From: Eledone cirrhosa
Taxonomy: Eukaryota
Direction of reading: 5' to 3'
DNA: 64,000 bases
Assembly: GCA_964016885.1 (NCBI GenBank)
Contig: OZ024743.1
Coordinates: forward strand, 54,498,001 to 54,562,000
Below the pieces are notes generated by a model that worked only from the letters and a program-made list of their open reading frames with translations, ran no database searches and was not told the origin of the DNA. Position numbers and translations under genes: made by a program. The number at the start of each line of letters is the position of its first letter. Position 1 is the stretch's first letter. Positions 13,835 through 54,666 of this stretch are shown here, piece after piece.

Positions 13835-16800
13835 AGAGAATCAGTGTTGCGACGAAAGGAATTTATTGGACATATTACAATTGTTTCTCGGGCGACCAGC
13901 TCGAGGCATGATCGATATGGTTATCAAACCTGACTCTGAAATCGCGCGGTCGTCGGATACGTCTCGATTCTACAAAGCAGATTTTCCTAATGTCCTTTAA
14001 CATCGAATTTCTTCGTTTGTTGATTTAGATCCTGTTGTTGTCCTTCCATGAGTGGTCAAGAATTGTACACGTCACCGGTATTTCTAGACTCTCATGGTTG
14101 CCCACTTCTTGCTTCCTCTCGTTCTCCACCTGTCAATCAAAATTTCTTCATGTATCAGAATTACTACTGTGGTGGGAAAGGGGCTGTAATCTGGAACGGC
14201 TGGCATCACTTGGACGTCTTTATTGCCCCTAGGCGCCTTAGTCTACATCGGTCAGGTACAGACCTGCAATTATGCTGTATGCGGCATTCATCGTAAATAA
14301 TGTTTTGCCGGAATTTAAAAAAAAAAAATCATAGGGATGTTTAGCATAACTTGTAGGACACAGCTTTAGAATAGCCTCCGCCATACATATTTCAAAAAGA
14401 AAAAGAAAAAGAAAAAAACCTGCATTAAGAACGTTTTTAAAAAACGTTTTTTTTATTAAAAAAAAAGCTTTCAACAGCCTTTCAAAACAGAAGAGCTATA
14501 ACAAAGGTGTTTTCAACAAATAGACCCAATTCTACACTCACACACTGGACTCAGGGTAGCGCGCATAGCCAGGACGCCGCACATATATATAGGCAGATGG
14601 GAAAAGAAAAATCCATGGGAAGTCATCCGTACCCCCACGCAGACATGCTCAGACAAATACATCGACCCAGGCATGCGCACACCCGTGCTCATACATGTCT
14701 GTGTGGACACACATACATACATGCACCCGCGTGCTCCCACACCGATTGCATATACTTGATGAGTACACCCCCATCCGTCTTCCCGCGCGCCGCTGCGTAG
14801 ATGGTGCACACAGTATTGTATGAGACAACGCATTTTAGGTCTTGCCCCAACCGGATCACGTGGCGGTGTGAGCCCGAAGGTGCCTGCACAATATGCCTAA
14901 ATGTTACGGCAGCACAATATCCCTGCACTAACCGCATGTAGCGTGGGTGGCACATATATATAAAAAAAAAAGCCTGTATGCACATAACGTAAAATAATGA
15001 AATAATATACAATAACAAAATAAAATAAGATAAAATACAATAAAATAAAATGTTGGAAAAAGAGAATGCCTACATGACAGGATGCAGAGGGGGACCAGGC
15101 ATTATCGAGGTGTGCGTAAAGAATCAACTACACGACCAAAAACTTAATGACAGGACTGGAAGTAGCAGACAGGACAGAACAATACGCGGATTTCCATCAA
15201 GGACCATAAATTAGACTTTAAGACCCCCTCCCGCCGGTTAGACTAATAGCACCCTCCAAGTCGGACCTCGGTAGGGTCAGTAAGAATATTATAGATAGGA
15301 TACTGCCCACGTTTATGAATAGAAATAGACTTAGCTTATGGACTTCCACTATGGAGGTAATAGACTGGTTTACAGCGCTGCCCACCAAACAGCAAGTGGA
15401 CTTCGTGCAGCTGGACATAGCAAATTATTACGCGTCTCTCTCACCAGTAATTGTAAACAAGGCCCGCATGAGCGCTATGGCAAGGTCCAACTTCACTAGA
15501 GGTGAAGTGGACATCATTATAGCTGCTAGAAAGACACTCATTATGTTTGACGGTAGACTGTGGGAAAGGAGAGACAGACCCGACAGTTTTGACATCACCA
15601 TGGACTCGAGAGACTCCGCACAGGTGACGGACTTGGTGGGAAATTATCTACTCTATAGGTTAGCAGAGGAGATTCCAGGGATAGGCGGAGCGATATATAG
15701 AGACGACGCCCTATTTATTTTCCACTCATTAAACTCTATTCAGCTGGAGCGCATGCGGAAGCGCATCTCACATTTCTTTAAACAGCACGGCTTATCCGTG
15801 CTAAGAGAAAACAGCACTAAGACAGTAAACTTCCTAGACGTATCTTTGCAACTGGATACAGGTTTATACCGACCATATCACAGGCCCAACGAGAACCTGC
15901 GGTACGTAAACATCCCCCCCTCCCAAGTCGGTTATTGGCGCTAAAGTGAAGGGGGTATCCACCCGAGTATCCAAACTGTCCGCCAACGTGGATGTGTTCA
16001 ATCAGCACGCCGATTACTACAATGAGGCACTGGGCAGGGTACACAGAAGCCATAGTGTATACCCCGGACAAGGGCAGGCCGTATAGCGAGGAACACAAAC
16101 ATTTTTTATTTTATTATTGTATATTATTTCATTATTTTATGTTTTGTACATACAGCTTTTTTTTTATATATATGTGCCACCCACGCTACATGCGATTAGT
16201 GCAGGGATATTGTGCTGCCGTAACATTTAGGCATATTGTGCAGGCACCTTCGGGCTCACACCGCCACGTGATCCGGTTGGGTCAAGGCCTCAAATGCGTT
16301 GTCTCATACAATAATGTGTGCACCATCTACGCAGCGGCGCGCGGGAAGACGGATGGGGGATACTCATCAAATATATACATCCGGTGTGGGAGCACGCGGG
16401 TGCATGTATGTATGTGTGTCCTCACAGACATGCATGAGCACAGGTGTTTGCATCCATGGGTCGATGTATTTGTCTGAGCATGTCTGCGTGGGGGTACGGA
16501 TGACTTCCCATGGATTTTTCTTTTCCCATCTGCCTATATATGTGCGGCGTCCTGGCTATGCGCGCTACCCTGAGTCCAGTGTGTGAGTGTAGAATTGGGT
16601 CTATTTGTTGAAAACACATTTGTTATAGCCCTTCCGTTTGAATGGCTGTTGAAAGCTTTTTCTTTTTAAAAACGTTCTTAATACAGGTTTTTTTATTTTT
16701 CTTTTCCTTTTTCTTTTTCTTTTTCTTTTTCTTTTTCTTTTTCTTTTTCTTTTTGAAATATGTATGGCGGAGGGTATTCTAAAGCTGTGTCCTACAAGTT

Positions 16801-17316
16801 ATGCTAAACATCCCTATGATTTGCTTTTTTAAAAAAATTCCGGCAAAACATTATTTACGATGAATGCCGCATACAGCATAATTGCAGGTCTGTACCTGAC
16901 CGATGTAGACTAAGGCGCCTAGGGGCAATAAAGACGTCGAAGTAATGCCAGCCGTTCCAGATTACAGCCCCTTTCCCACCACAGTAGTAATTCTGATACA
17001 TGAAAAAATTTTAATTGACAGGTGGAGAACGAGAGGAAGCAAGAAGTGGGCAACCATGAGAGTCTAGAAATACCGGTGACGTGTACAATTCTTGACCACT
17101 CATGGAAGGACAACAACAGGATCTAAATCAACAAACGAAGAAATTCGATGTTAAAGGACATTAGGAAAATCTGCTTTGTAGAATCGAGACGTATCCGACG
17201 ACCACGCGATTTCAGAGTCAGGTTTGATCACCATATCGATTATGCCTCGAGCTGGTCGCTCGAGAAACAATGGTAATATGTCCAAGAAATTCCTTTCGTC
17301 GCAACACTGATTCTCT
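13835..17316 (+). mobile_element. Penelope-like retroelement with ~1.2-kb inverted arms (13835-15054 / 16098-17316)
   Basis: Arms are reverse complements (mirrored ORFs in the track). The spacer encodes a PLE RT fragment. Confidence 0.85.
15190..16060 (+). pseudogene. Penelope-type reverse transcriptase fragment
   Basis: Motifs QLDIANYYAS, FDITMDSRDSAQVTDLVG, IYRDDAL, NFLDVSLQL, YRPYHRPN. Confidence 0.85.
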
Positions 17317-17896
17317 ATATTATATATACATATATATATATGAGAGAGGAAGAGAGAGAGAGAGAGTGTAAGAGAGAGAGAGAGAGAGAGAGAGAGAGAG
17401 AGAGAGAGAGAGAGAGATAGAGAGAGAGAGAGAGAGAGAGAGAGAGTCTGCGGTGCTGAGAATGGTGGGATCACTAATCATGGGACTTCTCAACGCACGT
17501 GGAAATCCAGAGGGGATATAGAGATAATTAAAATATCAACTGTGGCGCCAAACCATATATATATATATACATATATATATATAAGCCAAATGAAGCAACC
17601 AATCTGAAACTTCACTACTAATTTTCTACTAAGGAGATAAATTACTCCATCCTCCTCACCAGTCTAGTTAACGCTTTCAGTTAATACTTGAATGTTTTAA
17701 ATACTACAAAATTTCAAACACACGATTTTTGTATTCATTATTACTATATATATATATATATATATATATATATATATATATATATGTATATGTATTCTTC
17801 TATGGCAAAATGACCTTCCCAAAGTATAACAATATATATATATATATATATATATATATATATATATATATATATATATATATTAATATATATATA

Positions 17897-18558
17897 AATA
17901 TAAATTTAGCGAGAAACGCATTTCGGCGGGTAGAAATTAGCGAAACGCAATTTCCGTAATGGGCAAACAAGCGCTCCACGGATATGAAGATACCAGTGCT
18001 ATAAACATAAGTTAAAATGGTCATACACACTGAGACTATGGTTAAGAAGCCATTAACCACCTTAGCCAAAAAAGCGAACAAGCTAAACGGGTCAAACAAA
18101 ATTAGATAAGATATGATTGAAATAGTTACCCGGGCCTTCGGGGAAGATGGAATACTCCGAAATTGGGTTTCTGCAACACCTAAATCAATAATACTGTCTG
18201 CTTATAAAAAATAAGCTTTTGGTATAATGATCGAACAAGGCACCGCTTTCTCAACAGATTTTTGTTCTTCGTGCGCCAGAATCTCACAGGTTATGAAAGC
18301 ACATGTGAGGTTCTAAGGGGAGAAAACCACTATTTTGGCCAGTGAATTCAGCATGTTTAGTTATTGCAAAATTTTGCAAAAACAAATTAAGCTCTCGACT
18401 GAGTTGTTTTTAAAATAAACTTAAGCGCTTAATCAGTCTGTAGAATTAACTAAAAAGCCTAAACAAAAATAAAAAAATTAATTGGTTAATCACTTGACTT
18501 GGGAGATTAATACAAATATAAATTGAGCGAGAATCGCATTTCGGCGGGTAGAAATTAG
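17897..18558. mobile_element. ~618-bp element with ~45-bp terminal direct repeat, in (TA)n
   Basis: agcgagaa(a/t)cgcatttcggcgggtagaaattag at 17908 and 18526. Related termini occur at ~4570 and ~54360. Confidence 0.5.
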
Positions 18559-53819: not shown

Positions 53820-54083
53820 ATTATATAGGAGATTTATTGCTTAATCCTGGTTACAAATGTTTCCCCGAGCAGCTGGCTCGTGATCTGGGATGGCACCCTC
53901 AGCATATGCTTGTTTGTGTTTTTGCTGGTTTTTCCACAGATTTGATGTGATTTTTGTTGTGTTAACACTGGTCTGAGGATCAGGCAATCTTGGAGTCTGG
54001 TCTGGGGGTGCCATCCTAGATCACAAGTCAGCTGCTTGGGAAACATTTGTAATCAGGATAAGACAATAAAACTCCTATATAAT
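53820..54083 (+). mobile_element. Fold-back element with a hammerhead (53968-54056)
   Basis: Arms 53820-53902 / 54002-54083; ctggt CTGAGGA tcaggca...tgcttgg GAAA catttg TA atcag. Confidence 0.65.
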
Positions 54084-54610
54084 AAGAACAAATTGGAGAT
54101 GTTACAAATATATAGATAGATATACATATATATATAATTATATCCGTGTGCATGTATTTTTGTATATATATATATACGCATGTGTACATGTGTATGAGCG
54201 CATGTATGAGTGTGTTTGTACATGTGTGCGTGTGTGTGTGCATGTGTGTCTGTGTGCGTGCGTGTGTGCATGCGTATGTGTGCGTATGTAAATGTATATG
54301 AACTATATTACAAATTGGAGATTGCCACACATCTCGGAAGTTGTTTTTCGCTAATTCCAAAGCCGAAATATGATTCTCGCTAATTTATATTTGTATATAT
54401 ATATGTATATATATATATATATATAGAGAGAGAGAGGGGGTAGTCTGCTGTGCTGAAACCAGGGAGACCTGTAATCATGGGAATACTCAATGCATGGGGA
54501 AATGTGGTATGTAAAATCCCGACCACGGCCTCAAGCGGTACGGTTGTTTCATATATATATATATAGTGACGAAACATAAGTCAATTGCATGAACTCATAA
54601 TCCTTTATTT

Positions 54611-54666
54611 ACTGCTATATATATTTCGATGATAGCCATTGAATGGCTATGACCTCATCAGGCAGT
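54611..54666 (-). ncRNA. Type I hammerhead ribozyme
   Basis: actgc CTGATGA ggtc-atagccatt-c-aatggctat-catc GAAA tatata TA gcagt. Confidence 0.8.

Follow-up and report, generated by a model that had tools for sequence, protein, structure and literature searches.

Introduction

Insertions of Penelope-like elements (PLEs) have been described in which an inverted, 5′-truncated copy adjoins the element and a tail of 30-40 bp is present on one side only (PMC3846280; PMC8557442, fig. 2). As far as these two papers deal with the formation of such structures, they propose self-priming or resolution by the endonuclease, not two primers; how the tandem and inverted structures and the one-sided tail arise is described as unsolved (PMC8557442). 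The Hydra clade of PLEs is characterized there by a C-terminal GIY-YIG endonuclease, a CxCX5C linker, the motifs CxxC and CxH as well as DKT and RWK, insertion into (TA)n and canonical hammerhead ribozymes in some families. The present study deals with a stretch of 64,000 nucleotides of Eledone cirrhosa (GCA_964016885.1, contig OZ024743.1, positions 54,498,001 to 54,562,000, forward strand; hereafter, the window), which contains two broken coding PLEs, PLE-A and PLE-B, along with non-coding hammerhead families of the retrozyme type. Both kinds of element were found to possess two fixed 3′ ends, A and B, and to combine one A end with one B end in nearly all two-armed insertions.

For Poseidon PAc, a PLE of the anole, two start sites of the reverse transcriptase (RT) bounding the tail were detected in vitro, and both target strands were cut and extended (Frangieh et al. 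2024, PMC11167929). The same report describes an AT-rich target, a predicted dimer and a reaction that does not require ribozyme cleavage. For metazoan retrozymes without long terminal repeats (LTRs), mobilization by PLEs has been suggested (Cervera and de la Pena 2020, PMC7229834; Li et al. 2026, bioRxiv 10.64898/2026.07.22.740005). The mover of animal retrozymes has so far been argued from co-occurrence and similarity.

Results and Discussion

Pairing of two fixed 3′ ends

Genome copies of eight families were mapped onto their natural units. Each family revealed two fixed 3′ ends, A and B, which are 35-114 nt apart. The distance is 35 nt in the 311-bp family, approximately 70 nt in the 468-bp family, 114 nt in the 546-bp family, approximately 58 nt in the ~445-bp family, approximately 78 and 89 nt in the families of the hammerhead cores 53973 and 54661, respectively, 76-90 nt in PLE-A and 86 nt in PLE-B. 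Over all families, 120 insertions were A+B, one was B+B, one apparently A+A and three had an irregular end; these counts were derived from best-matching or first-listed loci and are not a census.

Of the 15 loci that matched the 311-bp family best, 13 were two-armed, all of them A+B, and two were single-armed. The exact B-junction pattern of this family occurs 1,246 times in the genome. A second set was picked by position and comprised the first 43 of these junctions minus one already counted. A divergent partner was present at 40 of these 42 loci, absent from one and hidden by a gap of Ns at another, and each visible partner ended at A (39/39). The 468-bp family yielded 24 insertions, 18 of them two-armed (16 A+B, two with one end at neither site), the 546-bp family 23 insertions, ten of them two-armed (nine A+B, one of unclear pairing). 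Among 24 loci of the ~445-bp family, whose A motif is of low complexity, 11 were A+B and none B+B, the others being single, interrupted or ambiguous. Six A+B and one B+B insertion were found among 17 loci of the 53973 family, three A+B among 20 loci of the 54661 family and four A+B, including the window copy, among 30 rows for PLE-A. For PLE-B, a divergent A end lay within 1.8 kb at 19 of 30 B-anchored loci (18 of them independent) and in the window, and a nearer B end at none. Hence, arm orientation was non-random genome-wide, with outward arms paired A+B across these eight families; random orientation, which a prediction made from the letters of the window alone (the sequence-only reading) had named as fatal to a common integration geometry, was not encountered.

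Proposed mechanism of integration

Directly seen are the two 3′ ends of each family, their A+B pairing, the outward position of the 3′ ends in (TA)n, variants shared by the arms, and randomly placed inner breakpoints that show microhomology or short inserts. Based on these genome sequence patterns and on the analogy to the anole PLE in vitro, we consider it likely, though not strongly so, that the insertions were made by the RT-endonuclease of Hydra-clade PLEs, both strands of (TA)n being cut and each end priming complementary DNA (cDNA) synthesis on one RNA, at A and at B. The enzyme would cut a (TA)n run, which is palindromic, in both strands, and the two free ends would serve as primers of reverse transcription, which would begin at site A from one of them and at site B from the other, with one RNA or sibling transcripts as template. 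A complex with two active sites, presumably a dimer, may be involved. The two cDNAs would halt at random, their 3′ ends would be joined by microhomology-mediated end joining, and fill-in would result in a head-to-head insertion. The stretch from A to B would correspond to the known tail of PLEs; as B serves as start for just one of the two primers, this tail may be confined to one end. In the case of retrozymes, the same protein would act in trans, its template being a circular RNA or an uncut multimer. The cleavage and extension of both strands by the anole PLE in vitro and its two start sites bounding the tail (PMC11167929) were counted in favour of priming from both ends.

Variants shared by the arms

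Arm haplotypes were compared in the 311-bp family, based on 19 variable sites selected from these same data. They were identical in 36 of 37 pairs comprising 17 haplotypes, compared to a mean of 4.7 and a maximum of 15 in 100,000 shuffles, and concordant in 27 of 28 pairs of the subset picked by position. The variants were mostly fixed through all units of both arms. Thus, the two arms of a 311-bp insertion share one source. Some variants confined to a single unit recurred in both arms; they were in register in L170, but shifted by 2 units in L171 and by 14 units in L150. Arm 5′ ends lay within 6 nt of the ribozyme cut in three of 100 cases (4.2 expected). Run-off at the cut was rejected on account of this lack of enrichment, which fits a circular or uncut RNA.

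It is conceivable, yet unlikely, that both target ends prime on two RNAs held by an asymmetric complex and that the arms match because the RNA of a cell stems predominantly from one source locus. A+B pairing, random junctions and microhomology are explained equally well by two RNAs, and the discordant arms of L161 and the out-of-register variants of L171 and L150 would suit two transcripts of one mixed array. On the other hand, the concordance over 17 haplotypes demands a nearly exclusive single source for each event, and two RNAs do not explain why one should always be read from A and the other one from B.

Long 311-bp arrays contain block duplications. The arrays at L175+L361, L147 and L150 reach up to 14 kb (45 units), with blocks of variants recurring at 27 and 5-7 units, periods that suggest unequal exchange after insertion. 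As proof of multimeric circles the periodic variants were discarded, since the periods of 5, 7 and 27 units are partial and broken by other variants, which is better explained by unequal exchange.

Inner junctions

Fifty-one inner junctions of the 311-bp family were analyzed (L137 was counted twice). Thirty-six were free of inserts, and 27 of these exhibited a microhomology of at least 2 nt, compared to an expectation of 17.6%. The other 15 contained 1-29 extra bases, partly templated; some of these inserts are inflated by a variant beside the junction. Microhomology at joined ends is a signature of polymerase theta. At the 311-bp insertion L362+L151, a sequence of approximately 270 nt lies between the arms (C1:45281597-45281870) and occurred in no other fetched locus, a case of junction capture.

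The junctions also bear on an explanation that draws on published proposals (PMC3846280, PMC8557442), namely a single priming event, after which the second arm is made as a copy of the first by self-priming or fold-back and resolution by the endonuclease leaves the one-sided tail. Shared haplotypes would be a direct consequence, the shared variant of L170 is in register, and some junctions are near-perfect hairpins, including one in the window with an offset of 2 nt. However, the palindrome expected at the inverted junction of a self-priming product was not enriched, since arm 5′ ends at most 20 nt apart, as in a hairpin, occurred at chance level (8/51 versus 6.7 expected; 3/16 versus 1.4 in the 468-bp family). 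The longer arm ended at A in 17 and at B in 25 of 42 insertions, so that either class of end can be the longer one, and both the window copy of PLE-A and L271 possess a tail on the short arm that is missing from the end of the long arm. The junction data thus speak against a fold-back copy and agree with a joining of the 3′ ends of two cDNAs. Moreover, within a tandem array a copied arm would lack any reason to stop at the other fixed site. A fold-back origin therefore has a poor chance of being correct.

Two independent insertions into one (TA)n run, later homogenized by gene conversion, are very improbable. Such runs are indeed hotspots in which several families crowd, and exchange within arrays is visible. 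Nevertheless, this origin is refuted by the counts of orientation and pairing: none of the 51 listed junctions contained a TA spacer, the arms were always head-to-head and strictly A+B, and singleton variants persist in arms that are supposed to be homogenized. Long perfect inverted repeats can also arise from fold-back reads, but an artefact of long-read assembly is hardly credible, as the arms end at two different fixed sites, the flanks differ, the arms of older families diverge by 3-30% and short-read contigs of run X1, possibly from the same sample, revealed loose TA ends, ten contigs ending in this way at site A and one near B.

Several points weigh against the proposal that both ends of one cut are extended on one RNA. 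Samples anchored at B are blind to A+A pairs; the four unanchored retrozyme samples could have revealed them and contained none. Exceptions to the pairing exist, i.e. the B+B locus L229, three loci with one end at neither site and the apparent A+A copy at 52515-52970, which is old and adjoined by another repeat. Many copies are single-armed (17/20 in the 54661 family, 20/20 in the 25078 family), and the arms of L161 differ at one site. Out-of-register variants together with block duplications indicate later exchange between units, which may add to the similarity of the arms, and one RNA is indistinguishable from two transcripts of one source locus. The retrozymes had no sequence match to 20 PLE loci with long open reading frames (ORFs) that would point to their partner protein. 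Finally, a hairpin common to all A-B tails had to be rejected, as only two of eight tails folded better than shuffled sequences (468-bp and 546-bp families, z −3.2 and −3.4; the other six, −1.4 to 0).

Coding elements

By the motifs defined in PMC8557442, PLE-A and PLE-B are classified as broken PLEs of the Hydra clade. The order of RT and C-terminal GIY-YIG endonuclease was recognized in PLE-B of the window, in L307, L336 and others, the frames in the window being broken. The linker of PLE-B (CNCRDRVDC) fits CxCX5C. A copy of the PLE-A family contains CKLC (CxxC) and CRH (CxH), and its linker reads CNCRVCEEF. The full-length locus L336 possesses DKT and RMRWR, i.e. RWR instead of RWK, and DKT is also present in L271. 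A Pfam search with four peptides of the window gave no match to RT or GIY-YIG. The RT fragment and the 3′ untranslated region (UTR) of PLE-A belong to one family; in the window copy, the long arm lacks approximately 2 kb between the C-terminus of the RT and the 3′ UTR.

As to the ribozyme, the PLE-A motif reads CTGACGA in eight of 32 arms and otherwise mostly CCGA(C/G)GA, while a descriptor scan of family copies of PLE-B did not detect any canonical hammerhead. Because this coding element obeys the A+B rule, the ribozyme is not what makes the geometry. A canonical hammerhead is present in the pseudo-LTR of the 54661 family; it lies downstream of the C-terminus of the endonuclease in L272 and heads the coding arm in L271. 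Judged by its sequence, the hammerhead at 54611 (core 54661) is a solo pseudo-LTR, the 3′ end of a coding PLE. The element at 53968 (core 53973) is probably another solo PLE end, as its stem III and a tail motif are, by eye, shared with Hydra pseudo-LTRs.

One motif is common to the tails of several Hydra families. In the full-length elements L336, L271 and L346, the next unit begins with the tail, which runs into the ORF; the coding elements are thus permuted units like the retrozymes. A search with the Hydra-clade endonuclease gave 62,466 first-look candidates in the genome, a number that is not a copy number and suggests that this clade, of which few families have been described, has expanded very strongly.

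Non-coding retrozyme families

The 311-bp, 468-bp, 546-bp and ~445-bp families consist of tandem units of a few hundred bp with one type I hammerhead per unit. At none of the mapped loci was a PLE ORF joined to an array, and matches to PLE proteins lay outside the arrays where compared. Apart from neighbouring sequences, the four families did not match the pseudo-LTRs of the 20 long-ORF PLE loci, which represent a small part of the PLE families of this genome. They nevertheless carry the same two-end signature as coding PLEs. The suggestion that a diverse set of non-autonomous ribozyme RNAs uses the PLE machinery is thus supported for these four families, and, judged against the 20 loci, not every hammerhead family appears to be just a solo pseudo-LTR of a known PLE. 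It does not extend to the solo end at 54611, probably not to 53968, nor to the 25078 family, in which none of 20 loci possessed inverted arms and a single 3′ end was found. The units of 445 and 468 bp are distantly related (65% over 213 nt, E 7e-4). Copies of the 25078 family (23522-25190, L285-L304) are very young, C-rich and 5′-truncated, with a stem I of 2 bp fixed across identical copies; L297 continues beyond the usual end.

In the 546-bp family, (CT)5-25 lies between the B end and (TA)n in 13 of 15 terminal junctions (window 26050-26082; L177-L200). The RNA reads UCUCU at this end, and 34 read-through matches keep the short form. None of the listed A-end junctions of this family started with (CT)n. 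Reiterative templated copying at initiation looks like the simplest reading of this pattern. The B ends of PLE-B repeat their last motif in L087, L102 and L106. A more far-reaching scheme appears possible, if doubtful: a PLE dimer might load two RTs on one circular retrozyme RNA, one at either side of the tail and each with one strand of a (TA)n break as its primer, and both might roll round the circle to produce inverted arrays in one step. At some start sites, the enzyme might first add short templated repeats in a telomerase-like manner and thereby seed new microsatellites, the (CT)n at the 546-bp B end being an example.

Hammerheads and insertions of the window

Hammerheads were detected by a scan with a type I descriptor whose stem II limits were relaxed after an over-strict first version. 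The window contains 17 strict motifs, ten of them in the 311-bp array (Table 1), compared to a mean of 0.03 and a maximum of one in 30 block-shuffled windows; the hammerheads are therefore real. Six of the eight sites named by the sequence-only reading proved to be intact, but at 52808 (+) a U replaces the catalytic C3 and at 25081 (+) stem I comprises just 2 bp. CUGA is found in four other copies of the 52808 family in which the scan detected the motif. Among the 150 of 259 Rfam matches listed, only 44906-44977 and 45363-45434 were hammerheads (HH9), both under the gathering score. The strict motif at 4807 had not been named before, and further hammerhead or hammerhead-like motifs lie at 4718-4812, 19821, 34743 and 45954. 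An additional two-armed hammerhead element occupies 25650-25981 (core 25784, minus strand), with a tail of approximately 76 nt confined to the right arm.

The geometry was established by self-comparison of the window and direct inspection of the sequence. Divergent arms with outward 3′ ends were confirmed at eight places, including both coding elements, which are arranged head-to-head like the hammerhead elements, whereas the elements at 25078 and 54611 are single-armed in the window. That the short arm duplicates part of the long one is not a general feature, since the short arm of PLE-A contains a tail of approximately 90 nt that the long arm lacks. Some boundaries had to be moved: PLE-A begins at 13745 instead of 13835, and the elements at 19349 and 53968 extend to 19718 and 53724, respectively. 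Most insertions are flanked by (TA)n, but the right end of 44628-45596 lies outside such a run. Runs of (TA)≥4 account for 6.4% of the window bases.

Table 1. Elements and hammerhead cores of the window
Position	Strand	Insertion with divergent arms	Feature	Strict hammerhead core	3′ end
4807	−		Strict hammerhead motif	4807−	
13745-15121	−	13745-17316	PLE-A (Hydra clade), short arm; tail 13745-13835 (~90 nt); variant hammerhead (CCGACGA core) upstream of site A		B
15122-17316	+	13745-17316	PLE-A, long arm: broken RT fragment (15222-16103), internal deletion, 3′ UTR		14 nt before the usual site A of the family
19176-19466	−	19176-19718	~445-bp-unit retrozyme arm; predicted cut after 19355	19385−	A
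19465-19718	+	19176-19718	~445-bp-unit retrozyme, partner arm		B (~58-nt tail)
19967-22926	−	19967-23135	PLE-B (Hydra clade), long arm: broken RT, CxCX5C linker, GIY-YIG endonuclease, 3′ UTR; no canonical hammerhead		B
22927-23135	+	19967-23135	PLE-B, short arm		A, 86 nt before B
23522-25190	+		Separate young element of ~1.7 kb, single-armed; minimal hammerhead-like core 25081		
26050-26082	+		(GA)16 run, likely added at priming; separates (TA)n from the B end of the 546-bp family		
26083-26132	−	26083-26730	546-bp-unit retrozyme, short arm		B
26133-26730	+	26083-26730	546-bp-unit retrozyme, long arm	26591+	A, 114 nt before B
29090-31071	−	29090-32394	311-bp retrozyme array, 6.4 units	six	B (unit position 166)
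31072-32394	+	29090-32394	311-bp retrozyme array, 4.3 units; haplotype of the left arm	four	A (unit position 131-140)
37920-38036	.		Miniature two-armed PLE-B insertion		A left, B right
44628-45254	−	44628-45596	468-bp-unit retrozyme arm	44959−	B
45253-45596	+	44628-45596	468-bp-unit retrozyme arm	45381+	45-50 nt before A, in non-repeat DNA (atypical)
51044-52300	+		Single-armed, 5′-truncated PLE-B copy, (TA)n on both sides		B
52515-52970	.	52515-52970	Old two-armed hammerhead element; core 52808 with C3U		Apparently the same site in both arms (exception)
53724-54084	.	53724-54084	Two-armed hammerhead element; probably pseudo-LTR of a Hydra PLE	53973+	B (left arm); irregular near A (right)
54566-54720	−		Solo pseudo-LTR of a coding Hydra PLE, single-armed	54661−	A

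Short inverted repeats in or near (TA)n at 37350-37460, 37829-37875, 38724-38847 and 41377-41607 are possibly further two-armed stumps. At 930-4400, a (TTG/TGG)-rich repeat of 3 kb contains open frames of 1,150 amino acids, its minus strand giving a Thr/Pro/Asn-rich, mucin-like stretch. Pieces of two RT elements resembling long interspersed nuclear elements (57806-59930) are unrelated to the two-armed insertions.

Comparison with known systems

In the twin priming of L1, which Ostertag and Kazazian are said to have described in 2001, both target strands reportedly prime on one RNA, the sense strands point outward and the cDNAs are joined by microhomology. The second primer is said to anneal upstream of the first cDNA, at an internal site that varies. 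Products of this type, with non-overlapping arms and a variable internal primer, were not found here; the arms of single-copy PLEs overlap, and both primers would act at fixed sites at the 3′ end. The contrast to L1 drawn by the sequence-only reading is thus fair for the ends of single-copy PLEs, but the data favour twin priming with both primers at the 3′ end of the element rather than an unrelated process.

With the PLE insertions of PMC3846280 and PMC8557442, as far as described there, the insertions of Eledone share the head-to-head arms, the tail at one end, partial tandems and (TA)n targets. They differ in that the tail measures 35-114 nt, the pairing has been counted and is nearly strict, palindromes are not enriched at the junctions and the arms share variants. 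Compared to the few families on which PMC8557442 based the Hydra clade, the genome offers 62,466 first-look endonuclease candidates, RWR replaces RWK and PLE-B is devoid of a canonical hammerhead. Poseidon PAc belongs to a different clade, and in the data of PMC11167929 considered here the start sites did not differ between the strands, nor were the two sites tied to the two arms of one insertion. This tie is provided by the A+B rule.

Like metazoan retrozymes, the non-coding families are low-GC tandem units of a few hundred bp with one type I hammerhead per unit, lack ORFs and co-occur with PLEs. Unit lengths of 468 and 546 bp exceed the range of 150-450 bp given in PMC7229834 but fall within that of 51-972 bp in bioRxiv 10.64898/2026.07.22.740005. 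The published case for a link to PLEs is made up of co-occurrence and similarity of pseudo-LTRs, and the word "inverted" does not appear in the main text of PMC7229834. By contrast, the arrays described here, known from DNA alone, bear the integration footprint of PLEs itself, while a pseudo-LTR parent was not found among the 20 PLE loci.

The layout, the one-sided tail and the link between retrozymes and PLEs are already published, and what is new is the quantitative A+B rule; neither this pairing nor shared arm haplotypes or the addition of repeats were found stated in the literature searched, older reviews and supplements lying outside the search. With no fewer than 1,246 young insertions, the 311-bp family offers a data set that is ready for use, and the site-specific addition of (CT)n is relevant to the kinship of PLE RTs and telomerase as well as to how microsatellites originate in genomes of this kind. 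In summary, the architecture is largely a known one, but the new rule discriminates between models of integration, arguing against self-priming, and by its PLE-specific footprint marks retrozyme arrays as probable products of PLEs.

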